Assembly (NCBI GenBank): GCA_014727915.1
Contig: WJMO01000009.1
Coordinates: 103,943-167,942 of the forward strand
Reading direction: 5' to 3'
DNA from: Candidatus Altiarchaeales archaeon
Lineage (GTDB): Archaea; Altiarchaeota; Altiarchaeia; IMC4; SCGC-AAA252-I15
DNA: 64,000 nucleotides
The number at the start of each line of letters is the position of its first letter. Positions within the stretch are counted from its first letter, which is position 1. The notes beneath the pieces are model-generated. The model saw only the letters and a list, made by a program, of their open reading frames with translations. It did not search any database and was not told the DNA's origin. This document shows, in pieces, positions 16,341 through 29,784 of this stretch. The translations under genes were made by a program, and so were the position numbers.

Positions 16341-16617
16341 GGTGGCGGACGCTCCGGGAGTGGAGTCCGTCGTCTAGGATTCGGTTGCTCCAGCTTGGTT
16401 CTCTCTCCCGCGACCTCACAAGCACCGCACGCAAATGTTATGGCTGCTCCCTTCCGGGCCTGACCAGGTTCCATAAGCGGACAGTCCAGTGAGACGAGAA
16501 GTCATAGTTCCAAGTTGGACCGGAACCTGGGCTTCGGATTCGCCTCCCGGCTTTCAGCCCCCCCATGAAGACGGTTTGGGGTGACAGGCAACGCCTAATT
16601 GCCCGGCCTAGTCCACC
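16341..16617 (-). ncRNA. ffs: Signal recognition particle RNA (7S)
   Basis: Minus strand starts GGTGGACTAGGCCGGGC (Alu-type 5' end) and contains the SRP54-binding helix 8 TCAGGCCCGGAAGGGAGCAGC; 3' GTCCGCC pairs with 5' GGTGGAC (helix 1). Confidence 0.95.
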
Positions 16618-16640
16618 AGAGAATAGATAGGCGGGACATG

Positions 16641-19645: not shown

Positions 19646-21742
19646 ATGATGGAAAGTAAGTCACGGCTGGTCTTCTCCGTCCTGGTTTTGCTGGTTTTTG
19701 CCACTTTCACAGCGGCTGTGAGGCTGACTGACGTCAGCGTGTCCAATGAGGTGGTGGACTACCAGGGCAAATTCGAGGTGGAGGCCGACTTCAGCGGGGA
19801 CACGTGCAGCGTCGAGGCCTGGTATTTCATAGGCGACTACCGTTTCGCCCGCAAGAACGTCGGCTGCGACCCTTATAACGGCAAGCTGGAGGTTACCTTC
19901 GAGGACGAGGACGACTGGGATAACGTGAAATGCGGCCCTCAGACTGCCACTGTGGAGATATACAACAGTATGGGCCTGCTCTTGGACAATCGCAGCGTGA
20001 ATTTCAGCGTGGGCGTCCTGCCCGTATTGAAGTTCATGCCCTCAAGACCGCTCGCCGAGAAGGAAGTGAGGGTCACACTATTGGATCCTGACACTGGAAA
20101 CCCCCTTAAGAGCCAGGATGTGGAGATAAAGGACAAGTACGGTGGAGAGCCTATCAGCAGGCGGACGGCCAGTGACGGGTCTTTCGTCTTCACACCCGAT
20201 ATCGCGGGCGAGTACACTCTGACGGTCAAGGAGCGGGAGGTCTGCGGGGATGTGACATTCTACGCTAAACGCCCTCTCCTGGCTGACGGACCCCACCCTG
20301 AGAACCCGGTAGTAGACGAGATGGTGTTGATCGCGGTCCCCTCGGGCTCTTCCGTCGGCGTTAAGGTGCTGGACTCGGAAGGCAACCTTTACCTGACAGT
20401 CCCGGTCTCCTACAATGGAGGGGGGAACTTCAGCATAAGCGAGGCGGGCGAGTACACCCTTGTCATAGGCGACCTGAGCACAAAGTACTGGAGCCTAAAC
20501 AAGACCCTCACAGTAACGGACCGGCCAGTGCCGGAGCTGTCGATAAAACCCGACGAACCGGTCGTGGGCAAGCCGATGACCTTCACTGTGACCTCCAGGA
20601 ACGAGCCTCTGGCGGGTGCTGTGGTCACCGTCACCAAACCTGATGGTGTGGCTCGCGAGTACACCACCTCAAGCTATGGTACTGTGAACTATGATGCAGT
20701 CACTTCGACCGGAGAATACAAGGTGGCGGCGACAAAGGACAGGTACTCGGATGTTACCTCCTCCTTCGAAGCCTACCACGCATTTGAGCCGTATCTCGAG
20801 CCTGCCCTCCCCACGGTCAGGGACACCATAGTGCTCACCGTCAACGACCAGAACGGCAATCCAGTGAGCGACGCTTTGGTTGAGATACCCGACACGGAGT
20901 TCATGAGGGTATGTGACGTGGGTGGCAGGGTTAGCTTCAACCTCGAAGAGGCCAAGGAATACACGATAGATATATCCAAGGACCTGTTCTGGGACAAGGA
21001 GATAACGGTCACACCCTACGGGATACTCTCCGTTAAGGCCTCATCCGCGTCTTTAATGCTTGGGGGCAACGTCACATTATTCGCATATGACAGCTACGAG
21101 AACCCCACATCCGCTGATCTTAAGGTTACAGACCCGGACGGCGTCGTTAGATACTACACTGGCTCACAGCAGTTGATAACGCCCGACAAACCCGGCGAGT
21201 ATGTCGTTTCCGGAGAGAAGACCAACCACCTCGGAGCTAACGTGACCTTCACGGTGGAACCATATGCCCTGGACGTTTCAACCTACATGTCCCAGGGGAC
21301 CTATTATGTTAACGTTACACGGGAGGGGGAGCCCATATCCGGCCTTAAGGTGAACGTTAAGATGGAGGAGGTCGACTTGGACGGGAGGACAGACGATGCG
21401 GGAATGGCATCCTTCAAGATAAGCCAGGAGGGCAACCTGACACTCACGGTTAACGTGAACGGAGATAACATTGTCTACGAGGAGAGGATAGTGCGGCAGA
21501 ATGTAGTGCGCTCATATGACCTGGTATATCTCACAGTTCCCCTGGTAATAGTCTTCCTGATAACCTTGTTCGCCATCATAGCCATACAGCTGGGCAGGGC
21601 ATACTTCGGGAAAGAGCTTAAAATGCCTTCCAAAACCGCTAAAACACCCAAGAAGAAGGGGAAGAAGCCCAAGGCAAAGCATGATTCTGTCCTTTTGGGC
21701 GATAAGCCCGAGAAGAAACGCTCACGCCTGTCCGGCATCTGA
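19646..21742 (+). CDS. Cell-surface protein with repeated Ig-like/carboxypeptidase-regulatory-like domains and C-terminal TM
   Basis: Signal peptide; repeated 'P..GA.V.V..PDG...T...G...F.....GEY.V.A.K' units; C-terminal TM and Lys-rich tail ending SRLSGI. Confidence 0.85.
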   Translation: MMESKSRLVFSVLVLLVFATFTAAVRLTDVSVSNEVVDYQGKFEVEADFSGDTCSVEAWYFIGDYRFARKNVGCDPYNGKLEVTFEDEDDWDNVKCGPQTATVEIYNSMGLLLDNRSVNFSVGVLPVLKFMPSRPLAEKEVRVTLLDPDTGNPLKSQDVEIKDKYGGEPISRRTASDGSFVFTPDIAGEYTLTVKEREVCGDVTFYAKRPLLADGPHPENPVVDEMVLIAVPSGSSVGVKVLDSEGNLYLTVPVSYNGGGNFSISEAGEYTLVIGDLSTKYWSLNKTLTVTDRPVPELSIKPDEPVVGKPMTFTVTSRNEPLAGAVVTVTKPDGVAREYTTSSYGTVNYDAVTSTGEYKVAATKDRYSDVTSSFEAYHAFEPYLEPALPTVRDTIVLTVNDQNGNPVSDALVEIPDTEFMRVCDVGGRVSFNLEEAKEYTIDISKDLFWDKEITVTPYGILSVKASSASLMLGGNVTLFAYDSYENPTSADLKVTDPDGVVRYYTGSQQLITPDKPGEYVVSGEKTNHLGANVTFTVEPYALDVSTYMSQGTYYVNVTREGEPISGLKVNVKMEEVDLDGRTDDAGMASFKISQEGNLTLTVNVNGDNIVYEERIVRQNVVRSYDLVYLTVPLVIVFLITLFAIIAIQLGRAYFGKELKMPSKTAKTPKKKGKKPKAKHDSVLLGDKPEKKRSRLSGI

Positions 21743-21823
21743 TGCGGTGGACTTGGACCTGCCCTCTTACAGGTTTTTATTGTTCTATTATCAATTACTT
21801 TTAAACTTTATCAAGGTGTTTTT

Positions 21824-23968
21824 ATGGCTTTACGTGTGTCGGATCTTAGGGTTTCAAACATGTTGTGTGTGCTCGCTTTCTTACTGGTTATGTCCTCAGC
21901 GGCATCTGCCGTCAGCATAGACCGGATGGACGTCAGCGTCCCCAACAGCATAGATGCTGGGGAGTCCTTTGACGTGGACATAACCTTCAAGGACCCCACA
22001 GAGAATGAGACGGTGGAAGTGGACATTGAGATCACCGTCGACGGCCTGCTCGTCCACGAGGAAGAGGACCGTTCCATCGACTTGAGAGAGGGAGTTGACA
22101 AGACCATAACGATCAAGTCTTCGGATTTCGACACCGACAACGGCGACATATGGGATGACAACCTCATGGCCTACAAGTGCGCTGACAACCTGGAAGTTGA
22201 AGTTATGGTGTCCGGCGACTTGGACGAGACGGAATCAGACGACATGGACATCGAAGCCGACGGAGACAGGGAACTATCCTTCGAGATCGACCCGGACCCG
22301 TTCTCATTGGACGACACGATAACCATCACAGTATACGACGAGGACGACGACGAGCTTAAGAGCGCCAGTGTGAAGTTCACCTGGATTGACGACGAAGACG
22401 GTGACACCCTTGATGAATGGGATGTGGAGGACAAGTATGAGACAGAGAAGACTGACAGCAACGGAGAAGCGGACTTCAAGCTATACCGGGACTTCGACGA
22501 CAACGCATATGGCAAGTACCAGCTGGACCTCTGGATGGACGGCTACTGCAAGCTAACGGAGACATACGATCTCAGGAACGTGCTGAACGTCAGCGACCCC
22601 ATGCCAGAGAGCCCTAAGGTGGGCGAACAGTTCAAGCTGAAGATAACAACCCCCTCCGGGAAGGCTGCTACCGGAGTGTGGGCTTACCTGAACCCGGGAG
22701 GCTTCAAGTCACGGGTGACCATGGACGGCGAGGTATCATTCACCGTGACCGCCGCCGGCACATACAGCCTGGCAGTTGGTGGCACGGGCTCAGGATACCA
22801 GGAGACCATAAAGACAATAAAAGTATCCACTAAGCCTCAGCTTACTGCGACTGTGTCGCCAGATCCGCAGAACGTGAACAAGGCGGTTCTCATAACCATA
22901 CAGTCCGATGGTAAGGCTGTGAGCGGCGCCTCAGTTAAGGTCATGCGTGCTGGCGGCACCGAACAGTCCCTGCCGGGAGTGACATCCGATGCGGGAACCA
23001 TATCCTTCACGCCGACGGTCGCAGGCGACTACACGGTAAAAGCCTCCAAGTCAGGATACGATGACGTTACCGAGGCCTTCACCATACAGGACAGCTTCCA
23101 AATTGACATGCCAACAGAGGAACTTAAGAGGGGCAGCCAGGTTACATTAACCGTGAAGGACAGCAGCGGCGACACAGTCTCCGGAGCCAGCGTTTCAATA
23201 GAGGGGACGTCCATCTCCGGGATGACTGATGCCGCAGGTCATTTCTCCTTCACATTGGATGAGGTTGGAGAGTATTATGTGGTCGTTAGGAAGAGCGGCT
23301 TCGCCGGCGCACGCGAGGAGTTGACCGCCAAGGGCAAACTATCGCTCAAACTCGACAAGAAAGAGCTCACACTTGGAGAGTCCGTTAAGATGACTGTGGT
23401 GGACTCAGAGGGGGCGTTGACAGAGTCTTCAATAAAAGTCACAGGCCCCGCCGGCGCCGAGACCTTCACTGCCTCGGAACTGGACTATAAGCCCTCGAAG
23501 GCGGGCGAACACACGGTTGAAGCTTCGAAGTCCGGATACGCTAAAGCTTCGGATACGCTTAATGTCAAGCCCAAGCCCCTGACCCTAACCTACCATTTCA
23601 AGGATGGGAACCTGCTCATGAACGCGTCCACCAACAACGAACCCGTAGCCGGGATAACCCTAAAGGTAACTGCGGGCGAGACGACCTACAACGTCAAAAC
23701 AGACGATGCGGGCGTGGCCTCGGTGGTTGCGAACCTGACCGGCAACTACACGATCGAAGTCACCAACCCGGACTACACGGGAGCCAAGGTAACAGCAGAG
23801 AAATCTTCGTCGCTGATATCCCCCGACCTGATACTGCCCATCATAGTCGTGCTGGTGGTGCTGGTGCTGATAGTCATATTCGTCATTGTGGCAGTCGGCC
23901 TATTGCACAAGGGCAGGAAGTCGAAGGGTTCCTTCGGGAGATCACCGGGTTCGCGGCTTGGAGGTTAG
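21824..23968 (+). CDS. Paralogous cell-surface Ig-like repeat protein with acidic N-terminal region
   Basis: Same repeat pattern (VSGASV...TD.AG...F...GEY.V...KSG); C-terminal TM; tail ending SRLGG. Confidence 0.85.
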   Translation: MALRVSDLRVSNMLCVLAFLLVMSSAASAVSIDRMDVSVPNSIDAGESFDVDITFKDPTENETVEVDIEITVDGLLVHEEEDRSIDLREGVDKTITIKSSDFDTDNGDIWDDNLMAYKCADNLEVEVMVSGDLDETESDDMDIEADGDRELSFEIDPDPFSLDDTITITVYDEDDDELKSASVKFTWIDDEDGDTLDEWDVEDKYETEKTDSNGEADFKLYRDFDDNAYGKYQLDLWMDGYCKLTETYDLRNVLNVSDPMPESPKVGEQFKLKITTPSGKAATGVWAYLNPGGFKSRVTMDGEVSFTVTAAGTYSLAVGGTGSGYQETIKTIKVSTKPQLTATVSPDPQNVNKAVLITIQSDGKAVSGASVKVMRAGGTEQSLPGVTSDAGTISFTPTVAGDYTVKASKSGYDDVTEAFTIQDSFQIDMPTEELKRGSQVTLTVKDSSGDTVSGASVSIEGTSISGMTDAAGHFSFTLDEVGEYYVVVRKSGFAGAREELTAKGKLSLKLDKKELTLGESVKMTVVDSEGALTESSIKVTGPAGAETFTASELDYKPSKAGEHTVEASKSGYAKASDTLNVKPKPLTLTYHFKDGNLLMNASTNNEPVAGITLKVTAGETTYNVKTDDAGVASVVANLTGNYTIEVTNPDYTGAKVTAEKSSSLISPDLILPIIVVLVVLVLIVIFVIVAVGLLHKGRKSKGSFGRSPGSRLGG

Positions 23969-23971
23969 AAC

Positions 23972-25045
23972 TTGCAACTGACCACAAACGTCCTAGGATC
24001 CTTCGTATTGCATAAGGGGAAGGTAATAAAGCAGAGGCTGTTCAAAGGCGGCGTGGAAGACATAGCCTCTAAGCTTAGGGATACGGAGGGCTCATATTGT
24101 GCGGAGGAATCCGAACTCCTCGAAGAGCTCATCGAAACAGGCAACAAACGCATACACGTGGATAACCCCTCCCGTTTCCAGGGTTCCGGCTTGGATGCGG
24201 TATTCCTGGATTCTGAGGAACGCTTTCCAGTGCACAGGTTCGCGTCGGAGCTCGGGCTCGAAAGGAGGGATGTAGACTCGCTGATAAGGAAGGTAAACCG
24301 GGCGTTGACCCGAGAGCGGCTGAAGGAAGTGGAACGAGACCAGATACTCATCCAGGCCGTCAACAGCCTGGACGACATCGACGAGGCGGTCAACCGGCTG
24401 ATAGAGAGGCTGAGGGAATGGTACAGCCTGCACTTCCCCGAGTTGGACGACCTGGTTTCCTCGCATGAGGCCTACGCCAACCTAGTATCCGAAGTAGGAT
24501 TCAGAAGCGCATACCCCTCCGCGAAAACGGGCTTCGACCCAGACTTCACCGATAAGATAGTGAAAGCGTCAGAGGACTCGCTTGGCGTGGACCTAACAGA
24601 AGAGGACCTGAAAGCCATAAGGGCGTTCACCCGCCCCATAATGGAACTTCACAAGTCTAAACTGTCAATAGAAGAATACGTGACTTCCCTGATGGATGAG
24701 ATCGCCCCTAACATATCCGCCCTCGCAGGGCCCCTTCTGGGAGCCCGGCTGATAGCGATGGCGCACAGCCTCAAGCGATTGTCAACACTGCCTGCGGGCA
24801 CGATACAGATACTCGGGGCAGAGGATGCGTTCTTCAGGTTCATGAAGACCGGCAGGAAACCGCCGAAACACGGGATAATATTCCAGTACCCTGCGATCCG
24901 CGGGGCCAAGAAGAACGTCCGCGGAAAGCTGGCCCGCACGTTCGCAGCCAAGATAGCTTTGGCCTCGCGCGCCGACGCCTACAAGGGGGAGTTCATAGGC
25001 GACAAGCTGAAGAAAGACTTTGAGAAAAGGGTGAAATCACTATAG
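23972..25045 (+). CDS. nop5: Box C/D sRNP protein Nop5 (Nop56/58)
   Basis: LREWYSLHFPEL, APNISALAGPLLGARLI, PAGTIQILGAE, PPKHGIIFQ, RGKLAR..AAKIALASRAD; TTG start. Confidence 0.95.
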   Translation: MQLTTNVLGSFVLHKGKVIKQRLFKGGVEDIASKLRDTEGSYCAEESELLEELIETGNKRIHVDNPSRFQGSGLDAVFLDSEERFPVHRFASELGLERRDVDSLIRKVNRALTRERLKEVERDQILIQAVNSLDDIDEAVNRLIERLREWYSLHFPELDDLVSSHEAYANLVSEVGFRSAYPSAKTGFDPDFTDKIVKASEDSLGVDLTEEDLKAIRAFTRPIMELHKSKLSIEEYVTSLMDEIAPNISALAGPLLGARLIAMAHSLKRLSTLPAGTIQILGAEDAFFRFMKTGRKPPKHGIIFQYPAIRGAKKNVRGKLARTFAAKIALASRADAYKGEFIGDKLKKDFEKRVKSL

Positions 25046-26453: not shown

Positions 26454-28055
26454 ATGGCGGGTTTGAAGGCTCTGACCCCAATTGCCGTTGCTTTTGCGTG
26501 TCTCGCCCTTCTCTTCATATTCCTTGACGGCGGTGTTGACACCATCGAGCCCCAGTTCACAGGATCAGGAGAACCGTATGGTGAAACGACCACCACCACG
26601 ACCCTATTGTGCGTGCCATGGACTGAAGAGGACGGACAGGACTGGGAGCCTGCCTTCTGCGGGCACCCCGAAACCGACCACGTCGACCACATGTGCAAGA
26701 TCTGCGACTGGACCGGCGCGTGCATAGAGAACTTCGTGATGCCATGCGACCCTGAGAAGACATGCTCCATCTGCTACAACGGCGTCTGCGACTATGAGCT
26801 GGCCAACGGGGACCCATGCGGGGAGATGGTAACCGGTGATGAAGCCGACAGGGAATGCTGGGAATGCCAGCACGGCGACTGCGTGTTCGTGGACAACAAA
26901 TCATGCTCTGACGGCTGTGGCATATGCCAGGACGGCTACTGCGACACGGCACTCAAGGAGGGTGACTGGTGCGGGTACAGCGGCGACGCCCTCGTATGCA
27001 GGAAATGCGAGAACGGACAGTGCGTTGAAAACGATGGAGAAGACTGCGGGCCCTGCCGGGATGACGGCACATGGCCTGACTGTGAACGCGACGAGTGCGC
27101 TGTCTGCATAGGCAGCTACTGCGACAAGAGCTACATGGACACCCTGGAATGCGGGCCTTACGGCACGGAATCCTATCCCTGCATGAAATGCGACTTCGGG
27201 GAATGCCAGCCGTCCGAAGCCAACACACCCTGCGGCAACCCCGGCGACTGCAAGGGCTGCGACGGCCAGGGACAGTGCACAGCCAACGCGGCGGAGGGCA
27301 CATCATGCGGATCAGGCCTTGACTATCCTTGCAAGCTCTGCGACAGCGAAGGGAACTGCGATGAAAACGCCCCCGACACCGTCATGTGCGGCCCTGAAGA
27401 CTGCTTCAGATACTGCAACGACGGCACGTGCAGCGGCGAAGCCGTCCAGGAGAGGGACTCATGCGCACCCGACAACAGCATATGCGCCATGTGCGTGGTG
27501 ACAGACCGGTTCGGCGACATGAACTGCATGCAAGCTCCCCCACACTACCCCTGTGGGGTCTGCAAGACATGCGCCTCCGACGGCAACTGCGTCCAAGCCG
27601 AAGAGGGGGCGATCTGCGGCGTTTGCAAGCGCTGCGACGCGGAGGGCAACTGCAACCAACCCAGCGAGAACGGGGACATCTGCGGCGAATGCAAGGTCTG
27701 CCAGAACGGAGCCTGCATCCGGGCAGCGGAAGGTTTCGAATGCGGACCATGCCTCAACTGCGACGCGGAGGGCAACTGCAACCAGCCCAAGCCACTTCAC
27801 GCACCATGCGGAGAGGAAGGGTGCATGAGATGCGACGACCAGGGACAGTGCATCATAGGATTGCTCGGCGGCCCCTGCCCGAACTCCAACCGGGACCCCG
27901 CCTGCAGCATATGCAGGGAAGGCAGGTGCGAGGGATTGGACGGGAACATCTGCGCATGGGCGAGTCCCGCACAGTGCAGATACTGCGTAGAATCCCACTG
28001 CTCAGAATTCCACATATTCACCTGCCCAGCCACCAACCCCTTCCCAACAGTATAA
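26454..28055 (+). CDS. Extremely Cys-rich secreted/membrane-anchored repeat protein
   Basis: N-terminal TM and TTTTT linker, then many C-G-x-C-x2-C-x3/4-G-x-C units; 27 bp exact repeat at 27632-27658/27758-27784. Confidence 0.85.
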   Translation: MAGLKALTPIAVAFACLALLFIFLDGGVDTIEPQFTGSGEPYGETTTTTTLLCVPWTEEDGQDWEPAFCGHPETDHVDHMCKICDWTGACIENFVMPCDPEKTCSICYNGVCDYELANGDPCGEMVTGDEADRECWECQHGDCVFVDNKSCSDGCGICQDGYCDTALKEGDWCGYSGDALVCRKCENGQCVENDGEDCGPCRDDGTWPDCERDECAVCIGSYCDKSYMDTLECGPYGTESYPCMKCDFGECQPSEANTPCGNPGDCKGCDGQGQCTANAAEGTSCGSGLDYPCKLCDSEGNCDENAPDTVMCGPEDCFRYCNDGTCSGEAVQERDSCAPDNSICAMCVVTDRFGDMNCMQAPPHYPCGVCKTCASDGNCVQAEEGAICGVCKRCDAEGNCNQPSENGDICGECKVCQNGACIRAAEGFECGPCLNCDAEGNCNQPKPLHAPCGEEGCMRCDDQGQCIIGLLGGPCPNSNRDPACSICREGRCEGLDGNICAWASPAQCRYCVESHCSEFHIFTCPATNPFPTV

Positions 28056-28101
28056 ACCGAAAAACAGGATCTTCTGTTAAACAGTGTCTAAGAATACTTT
28101 G

Positions 28102-28164
28102 TGTTCATCAGCAGCTACCCTTGTCGTCACAGAGTCGGACTACTTCGCTGTCATCACCTGAACA
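28102..28164 (-). ncRNA. Box C/D methylation guide sRNA (double guide)
   Basis: Minus strand: TGTTCA-G-[C: GTGATGA]-CAGCGAAGTAGT-[D': CCGA]-CTCT-[C': GTGACGA]-CAAGGGTAGCTG-[D: CTGA]-TGAACA. Two 12-nt guides and a 6-bp terminal stem. Confidence 0.9.
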
Positions 28165-28370
28165 GAATACTATTAATCAATATCAGAATATATACCAGAT
28201 ATAAAAGGGGGGGATGGGAGTGGGGTTTCCCCCAACTAATGGGCTGCCTAAAACTGGAGATGTTCATCCGACCCCCTCAGGTTAAACATTGGCCGCCTCC
28301 ACGGTTTTGTTTTTAAACTCGATTTCACATATGTTATCCTCCTTTATTTTGGGGGGGAGGTGTTTTTACG

Positions 28371-28577
28371 GTGGATTTATGGGGGGATATAGGAGCTGCC
28401 GCTGGCAATATCTTTAACGCCCTCTCTGGATCTGACAAGCCCATGACCTACGCAGCATTGAAGAAGAAGACCAAATTAGACGATGCTATGCTGTCTATGG
28501 GACTGGGTTGGCTTGCCAGGGAGGATAAGATAATGCTCGCCAAGAAAGCGCGTTCTATAACGGTCCAACTAAGGTAG
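28371..28577 (+). CDS. Winged helix-turn-helix protein (DUF2582 family)
   Basis: IGAAAGNIFNAL...LKKKTKL....MGLGWLAREDKI; GGAGGTG SD upstream. Confidence 0.88.
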   Translation: MDLWGDIGAAAGNIFNALSGSDKPMTYAALKKKTKLDDAMLSMGLGWLAREDKIMLAKKARSITVQLR

Positions 28578-28602
28578 AAAAAAGGAGTCAGCCTGTATTG
28601 GA

Positions 28603-29784
28603 TTGGGGGAGTTGAAAGTGCGAATAGGCGTTTTTTCATGGGAGACGTTGAACTCTATCAAGGTCGGCGGAGTAGCCGCCGTTGTCACTCAGCTTAGCGA
28701 AGCCCTGGCGGACTTAGGCCATGAAGTCCACGTTTTCACACGCACCACCGAAGGCAAGCCCGAGCACGAGCTCATAAACGGGGTGTGGGAGCACCGCTGC
28801 CTCAGCCCGGGGATGGACGACTTCATAGAGTACATGGACCACGTCTGCGACAGCATGGTCTCAGCATACCACTGGGCGAAGGCCGAATATGGGGAATTCG
28901 ACGTTTTACACGGCCACGACTGGCATAGTGTCAACGCGTTGGCCAACATAAGACAGAACACGGGCTTCGACAACATAGTCTGGACCTGCCACAGCACCGA
29001 ATACGGCCGTAACGGGAACAACTTCGCCGACAACTGGTTCAGCGCCCGCATACGACACAGGGAATGGCTTGGAGGGTACATCTCCAAGAAGACCACGACA
29101 GTCTCCTATTTCATGCGCTCCGAGATAAGCCGGGAATACCAGATACCCGAGGAGAAGACCCAGGTCATCTACAACGGCATAGACACCAGGGGCTTCAAGG
29201 GGGAGGTGGACCCTGGGCGGGTGAAGGAACGATACGGCCTGCACCCTCTAGACCCGGTCATACTGTTCTTCGGACGCATAGCATACCAGAAGGGCCCCGA
29301 CCTGCTGTTGGAGGCCATACCCGGGGTATTGGACGAATTCTACAATGCACGGTTCATCTTCGCAGGGTCCGGGGACATGATAAACCACCTCCACGGCCGC
29401 GCCCACTGGCTCGGAGTCCACGACAAGATCCGGGTGTTGGGTTATGTGAGCGAGGAGGAGAAGAAGGAGCTGTTCAAATCATGCGACATGGTCTGCGTAC
29501 CATCCCGTAACGAGCCCTTCGGGATAATAACCTTGGAGGCGTGGGCCAGCGGAAAGCCCGTGGTTGCAACGGACGTCGGCGGGCCATCGGAGATAATCGA
29601 CAACTTCCGCACGGGCGTGAAGACATACCTGAACCCTGACAGCATAGCATGGGGCATAAAATACCTGCTTGGAGACCGTAGCGGCGATTCTCTGAAGAAA
29701 ATGAGCGAAGTCTGCCTTGGGGAGGCTCAAAAGTACGACTGGCACGAGATAGCCAAACAATACCTGGAAGTGTACGGGATTTAG
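28603..29784 (+). CDS. Glycosyltransferase family 4 (glycogen-related)
   Basis: FSWE..KVGG, HGHDWH, HSTEYGR, QKGPDLL, PSRNEPFGIITLEAW. Confidence 0.92.
   Translation: MGELKVRIGVFSWETLNSIKVGGVAAVVTQLSEALADLGHEVHVFTRTTEGKPEHELINGVWEHRCLSPGMDDFIEYMDHVCDSMVSAYHWAKAEYGEFDVLHGHDWHSVNALANIRQNTGFDNIVWTCHSTEYGRNGNNFADNWFSARIRHREWLGGYISKKTTTVSYFMRSEISREYQIPEEKTQVIYNGIDTRGFKGEVDPGRVKERYGLHPLDPVILFFGRIAYQKGPDLLLEAIPGVLDEFYNARFIFAGSGDMINHLHGRAHWLGVHDKIRVLGYVSEEEKKELFKSCDMVCVPSRNEPFGIITLEAWASGKPVVATDVGGPSEIIDNFRTGVKTYLNPDSIAWGIKYLLGDRSGDSLKKMSEVCLGEAQKYDWHEIAKQYLEVYGI

Follow-up and report, generated by a model that had tools for sequence, protein, structure and literature searches.

Features of the locus and anatomy of the sRNA gene

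The window, by which the whole 64,000-nt stretch of DNA analyzed is meant, belongs to an assembly of a Candidatus Altiarchaeales archaeon (1.81 Mb, 90.6% complete). The host had been taken for a DPANN-type archaeon, in agreement with the NCBI taxonomy, where Candidatus Altarchaeota (Altiarchaeota) is placed under Nanobdellati, the DPANN kingdom. An archaeal SRP RNA gene (16343-16618, minus strand, 159.6 bits) was the only match within the window at the Rfam gathering threshold. Two adjacent large proteins (698 and 714 aa), probable surface proteins composed of carboxypeptidase-regulatory-like and Ig-like repeats, are encoded at 19646-23968 (plus strand), followed by a Nop5 gene at 23972-25045 (plus strand; Pfam Nop, about 219-220 bits). 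At 3 kb from the latter, a 63-nt element with the anatomy of an archaeal box C/D sRNA was recognized on the minus strand, at 28164..28102, by sequence inspection and motif match. The element sits within a spacer of about 550 nt, convergent with a 533-aa open frame without a Pfam match (26454-28055, plus strand) and upstream of a GT4 glycosyltransferase gene on the other flank (28603-29784, plus strand). The remainder of the spacer (28200-28600) contains many runs of G and C (G7, C5, G8, G6), and an Rfam search of it returned no match below E = 3.

Read along the minus strand, the element begins with the 5' half of a terminal stem (UGUUCA, 28159..28164), which pairs with the 3' half at the other end (UGAACA, 28102..28107) and is separated by a single unpaired G from the C box (GUGAUGA, 28151..28157). 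The 12-nt D' guide (CAGCGAAGUAGU, 28139..28150), complementary to positions 2471-2482 of the organism's own 23S rRNA, is followed by a D' box (CCGA, a variant of CUGA, 28135..28138), a 4-nt spacer (CUCU, 28131..28134) and a C' box (GUGACGA, a variant of RUGAUGA, 28124..28130) that was assigned by motif match and by alignment of homologues. The 12-nt D guide (CAAGGGUAGCUG, 28112..28123) has matches in own 23S at 2412-2419 and 1086-1095 and is followed by the D box (CUGA, 28108..28111). The four boxes, two 12-nt guides and terminal stem that the original prediction had described at 28102-28164 were all present, on the minus strand.

In the alignment of 34 homologues described below, UGAUGA of the C box and CUGA of the D box are invariant, and the 3' half of the stem covaries with the 5' half. 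The columns of the D' box hold CUGA or CCGA, the internal boxes of the homologues alternating between CUGA/CCGA and UGAUGA/UGACGA/UGAAGA; the spacer between the D' and C' boxes varies in sequence and length, with inserted hairpins in some homologues. In the window's copy the D' and C' boxes are each one base from the consensus and retain the GA dinucleotides, and these variants would still be expected to bind L7Ae.

A putative TATA box (UAUAUAUU; in the DNA, TATATATT) is found at 28187..28194 on the minus strand, its center preceding the stem by about 26 nt. Across 53 homologues, an A+T-rich patch recurs at -35..-29 from the C box (A+T fraction 0.68-0.75, against 0.45-0.55 alongside), and the TATATATT patch, whose location is that expected of an archaeal TATA box, may be the promoter. 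A T5 run about 40 nt downstream of the sRNA (28060..28064, minus strand) is, from its sequence, a candidate terminator. The folding energy is unremarkable (z = 0.39), as expected of the box C/D class, and the terminal stem is present in the minimum-energy fold.

Besides Nop5, L7Ae is encoded in the genome, and a fibrillarin gene was found on contig C3 (C3:355666-356289, 266 bits), about 11 kb from the rRNA genes. The genes for fibrillarin and Nop5 are usually adjacent in archaea; here they are apart, on different contigs. A search of the 1.81-Mb assembly with a regular expression for the full box C/D architecture gave two loci, one of them 28102-28164. The other, the sole further canonical box C/D sRNA found, is outside the window at C3:440776-440824 (plus strand). 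Its D' guide forms 11 pairs, including one GU, with N+5 at E. coli U2552 in the A loop; its D guide forms 10 pairs, including one GU, and falls on C2558. A looser C/D scan of the genome gave 27 candidates, 25 of which were unconvincing.

Conservation of the gene and covariation of its stem

Homologues were collected in two ways. A similarity search with an 86-nt query found a match in 34 of 41 genomes (this genome and 40 relatives) at E<=1, with no second copy in this genome; for the counts given below, only the best hit from each of the 29 genomes at E<=0.01 was kept, weaker rows and second hits being excluded. A pattern scan covering one genome per prokaryotic species yielded 55 stretches, mostly titled Altiarchaeota or "uncultured archaeon", with seven titled Nanoarchaeota or Parvarchaeota and one Huberarchaeum. 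Of the 55, four lacked an upstream C box (two bacterial, one from Methanobacterium, and L111) and were set aside as apparent chance hits. Since the pattern demanded AAGGGTAGCT, invariance of the core in the scanned loci is by construction, and conservation is judged on the similarity-search set, in which the D-guide core AAGGGUAGCU was present in 27 of 29 relatives' copies. Both sets together gave 54 distinct full copies, and the 34 of ordinary length entered the alignment.

The terminal stem covaries. Standard pairs were found in 87.7% of the cells of the 34-sequence alignment, compared with 25-53% when the 3' partners were displaced by 1-3 columns, and each of the six pairs had changed on both sides among the homologues. 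Both sides differed in 50 cells, against at most 25 in the displaced controls, and none of 500 shuffles had a covariation score as high. It is very improbable that the stretch is no RNA gene at all, either a chance arrangement of motifs or coding sequence of the plus-strand frames 27428-28204 and 28101-28316. These open frames do overlap the stretch, but the homologues stand in differing genomic contexts with boxes, guides and stem conserved and the stem covarying, the genome has only two occurrences of the full motif, and the longer frame itself runs over the tail of the 533-aa frame ending at 28055. Borne out by its anatomy, its homologues and its covarying stem, the dual-guide box C/D sRNA proposed at the outset is confirmed, at the level of sequence comparison, as a genuine guide-RNA gene at 28164..28102.

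The kind of RNA is well known and the family is new. The nearest Rfam models stayed below their gathering scores (sR2, RF01139, 22.3 bits against 42; sR14, 15.2 against 38; sR12, 13.6 against 38), because the guides differ.

Pairing of the two guides with 23S rRNA

The organism's own 23S rRNA (C3:339896-342758) was aligned with the annotated E. coli 23S and the numbering calibrated on the sarcin-ricin loop. The D' guide pairs with own positions 2471-2482 (E. coli 2494-2505) over all 12 positions, with 11 Watson-Crick pairs and one GU at position 1, and N+5 falls on own C2475, the equivalent of E. coli C2498, as had been claimed. A complementarity of 9-12 nt in the organism's own RNAs had been named as the test of the prediction, and the 12-nt duplex lies within that range. 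Among 23S, 16S and 16 tRNAs, the next-best site for the D' guide had 6 contiguous Watson-Crick pairs, and one of 300 shuffled guides equaled its score against the same RNAs. Taken together, the boxes, the spacers of about 12 nt, the stem, a guide duplex of at least 9 bp with a Watson-Crick pair at N+5, and the core proteins are the sequence-level marks of a box C/D sRNA, and all were found.

The real 23S departs from the rRNA strings on which the prediction had relied in having C at 2442, U at 2499 and C at 2503. The real sequence fits the D' guide better than the assumed one and the D guide less well by one base, with 8 pairs in place of 9. The D' target differs from E. coli in its U at 2499 and its C at 2503. 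Both are specific to the lineage, and every one of the 32 relatives' 23S sequences spanning the site has them. As the D' guide pairs with both U2499 and C2503, it appears fitted to the rRNA of its own lineage and not to a generic archaeal sequence. Guide positions 2-11 are identical in nine of the ten genomes that carry the C2498 guide, while positions 1 and 12 vary; a crystal structure of the Sulfolobus C/D RNP reportedly shows a guide-substrate duplex of 10 bp, in agreement with the conserved positions. The D' guide most likely directs ribose methylation of own C2475, in the catalytic center, and for a computational prediction the case is strong.

Position 2503 of 23S rRNA is almost invariantly A. 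The own sequence has U at E. coli position 2453, U at 2499 and C at 2503 (own 2430, 2476 and 2480, respectively); C at 2503 was also seen in Altarchaeum and Huberarchaeum, and in four genomes titled Nanoarchaeota or Parvarchaeota the 23S shows much greater divergence around 2447-2452 and 2496-2506. Divergent catalytic-center sequences have been described in Thermoproteota in a 2024 preprint (10.1101/2024.11.12.623245), the portions of which covered here do not mention the lineages above.

The D guide, which had been assigned to U2438, has two sites in the own 23S. In helix 74 (own 2412-2419) it forms 8 contiguous Watson-Crick pairs with guide positions 2-9, N+5 falling on own U2415 (E. coli U2438). 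In helix 43 (own 1086-1095) it forms 10 contiguous pairs, 9 Watson-Crick and one GU, with guide positions 1-10, and N+5 falls on own U1090 (E. coli position 1076). Neither site is significant by itself in this genome: a score of 8 or better was reached somewhere in the rRNAs by more than half of the shuffled D guides, and the helix-43 score was equaled by 31 of 300. At 8 bp the U2438 duplex is below the 9-bp complementarity rule used for C/D guides by Dennis et al. (2015; PMC4644070), a rule relaxed in that survey for double guides, whose targets lie within 100 nt. The helix-74 target is 60 nt upstream of the C2498 target, and in 223 of 5000 shuffles an 8-bp site arose by chance no more than 100 nt from the D' target, on either side.

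Comparison among relatives favors U2438 as the target of the family. Outside the order, the sRNA and a 23S sequence were both available for six genomes (one Altarchaeum, one Huberarchaeum, three titled Nanoarchaeota and one Parvarchaeota). The D guide of each had its top match in the own 23S at U2438, with 9-10 Watson-Crick pairs, and helix 43 was never among the top three matches. Within the order, at least 8 Watson-Crick pairs covering N+5 were found at helix 74 in all 24 genomes with both sequences. The duplex is limited to 8 bp here by C at position 2442, which is found throughout the order where other DPANN have U. Guide positions 10-11, two A residues at the 5' end of the core that are kept in 27 of 29 copies, are nevertheless unpaired at helix 74 (C2442, G2443), and position 10 would pair at helix 43. 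The U2438 assignment was upheld in part: the N+5 rule and conservation in DPANN speak for it, the short duplex here and the stronger 10-bp match in helix 43 against it. On these grounds U2438 is, by a slight preference, the likelier conserved target of the D guide, with U1090 a serious lineage-specific alternative or second target.

The chief alternative leaves the sRNA and its D' target unchanged and has the D guide methylate own U1090 in helix 43, in the GTPase-associated center, the helix-74 pairing being an ancestral remnant or a mere folding contact. We regard this as a possibility of substance, though one that we would not prefer. The helix-43 duplex, with its 9 Watson-Crick pairs and one GU, is the longest that the D guide forms in the own rRNAs, it recurs with 9-10 pairs in 17 of 20 relatives (ten Watson-Crick pairs in three), and it accommodates the conserved A at guide position 10, which helix 74 does not. 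The same score was however reached by 31 of 300 shuffles, as noted, and in three relatives (G021, G023 and G026) a C at N+5 makes a mismatch although the D guide is unaltered; this U/C change accompanies a change on the opposite strand of the rRNA helix and no change in the guide. In addition, five of the six genomes outside the order, where helix 43 ranked below the top three, have C at N+5, and about 1,385 nt separate the site from the D' target.

It is also conceivable, if unlikely, that the D guide does not methylate in this lineage and acts only as a tether in rRNA folding, catalysis being left to the D' guide. The shortness of the helix-74 duplex would agree with this, and chaperone-type roles, as well as double guides of which one arm does not methylate, are described in PMC4644070. 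Against it stand the 8 contiguous pairs, with a Watson-Crick pair at N+5; the guide core is retained in 27 of 29 relatives, an argument that it still has some function.

Other targets were sought for both guides. Perfect 10-nt complements of the D-guide core occur at three places in the genome besides its own opposite strand, about the number expected by chance; all three are inside open frames of at least 485 codons and were rejected. None of the 16 tRNAs detected by aragorn pairs beyond 8 positions with either guide. Aragorn found only 11-16 tRNA genes in this genome, and with the intron option 7 of 11 carry introns of 49-190 nt, so that standard detection may overlook many of its tRNAs.

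The reading that best explains the anatomy, conservation, stem covariation, complementarity and three protein genes observed here, methylation of C2475 with D-guide pairing at helix 74, is in its entirety probable. The 63-nt sRNA would be transcribed independently from the minus strand and would assemble with L7Ae, Nop5 and fibrillarin into an archaeal methylation RNP. During ribosome assembly its D' guide would bind own 23S 2471-2482, placing fibrillarin on the ribose of C2475 in the peptidyl-transferase center for methylation, and its D guide would pair with the 3' strand of helix 74 at own U2415. With the targets 60 nt apart, both strands could be held by the sRNA simultaneously. The D guide of this lineage also fits helix 43, at own U1090.

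Exchange of the D' guide among relatives and relation to known systems

The D' slot differs among the 29 copies of the similarity-search set: nine have the C2498 guide, 15 a guide of ACCGACCCAG type, two AGCGCUCCA and three another sequence. The ACCGACCCAG-type guide uses its positions 2-6 and 8-11 to pair with the P-loop strand CUGGGGCGGU, which places N+5 on G2251. This fit was seen in 7 of the 10 such genomes with a 23S sequence, one of the others having an extra mismatch and two being in uncertain register; the guide of G002 fits a variant P-loop (GGUGGGGCGCC) present in part of the family. Outside the order, the Altarchaeum copy has a D' guide at G2251 (10 pairs), and the Nanoarchaeota and Parvarchaeota copies have D' guides at U2552 (U2551 in one) with 8-11 pairs. 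In the relatives, as far as sequence tells, the D' slot tracks its target.

Within the order, the C2498 guide was found in 10 of 49 genomes, always in the D' slot of this sRNA family. A pattern for it matched 19 places in the 49 genomes, against 6 for a reversed control. Nine of the 19 were outside known copies; eight lacked a C box and were discarded as chance matches, and the ninth is a further member of the family, in G007. In the window's copy the C2498 guide has replaced the D' guide of G2251 type seen in most relatives, and a 9-mer search of this 90.6%-complete assembly gave no match to the P-loop guide with box context elsewhere. Two relatives, G021 (L017/L078) and G007 (L123), have the sRNA duplicated in tandem at a distance of 100-170 nt; both copies in G021 carry the C2498 guide, and G007 has one C2498 copy and one of P-loop type.

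In several relatives (for example L054, L058, L059, L060 and L063) the 23S gene aligns as two or three segments, interrupted by gaps of about 100-300 nt at own positions of about 1920 and about 2455-2466 (E. coli ~2480, helix 89), the latter between the two predicted targets. These gaps are probably rRNA introns; this genome has none at these places.

A broader history can be proposed tentatively, with chances that we put a little below even. The family would be a DPANN-wide scaffold with a fixed U2438 guide, on which the D' guide has been re-aimed at G2251, U2552 or C2498; in the window's subclade the switch to C2498 would have followed a tandem duplication, two relatives still having tandem copies, and the guide would be tuned to the lineage-specific U2499 and C2503. 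All three D' targets are 23S riboses that are methylated in E. coli by stand-alone enzymes, and the C2498 guide would be a convergent, RNA-guided counterpart of RlmM in a mesophile with apparently two guide RNAs, both directed at the catalytic center.

Archaeal dual-guide box C/D sRNAs (the Pyrococcus sR families; sR2, sR14 and sR12; the 489 sRNAs of PMC4644070) served as the comparison set. Like these, the present RNA is about 60 nt long, with four boxes, two 12-nt guides and a short terminal stem; both of its predicted targets are in domain V of 23S within 100 nt, and genes for L7Ae, Nop5 and fibrillarin are present. Unlike in hyperthermophiles, which have far more, there are apparently only two such sRNA genes in this genome. 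No report on C/D sRNAs of Altiarchaeota was found in the literature searched.

The predicted product, Cm at C2498 of 23S, is that of E. coli RlmM (YgdE), which is a protein-only enzyme, whereas here the site would be selected by an RNA guide. RlmM is active on naked 23S or domain V and not on the mature 50S subunit (PMC3488215), a preference that fits modification at C2498 during assembly. Table 1 of PMC11542601 has Cm2498 in E. coli alone and gives no counterpart in archaea, yeast, human or plants. The P-loop site has archaeal precedents: the same table attributes Gm1950 of H. marismortui, the equivalent of Gm2251, to aFib with an sRNA, and the G2251 equivalent, G2520, is a predicted guide target in three species in PMC4644070. 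Most relatives' copies of the present family resemble such P-loop guides in having G2251 at N+5 of the D' guide; the window's copy differs in having the C2498 guide in that slot. Titles and abstracts gave no archaeal guide for C2498; equivalents of C2498 or U2438 may already have been predicted in hyperthermophiles, in the full site lists of the large surveys (PMC4644070, PMC6009581).

The general understanding of box C/D RNAs is unchanged by these results. The sRNA family provides a clean natural case of guide-slot exchange on a conserved scaffold, and it draws attention to the C at 2503 and U at 2499 that are found throughout the order. The predicted RNA-guided counterpart of bacterial Cm2498 is notable: if the methylations are real, Cm2498 is not confined to bacteria, and its installation outside them falls to an RNA guide and not to a dedicated protein. 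For this organism, the results suggest that even a minimal repertoire of guide RNAs is spent on the catalytic center of the ribosome.
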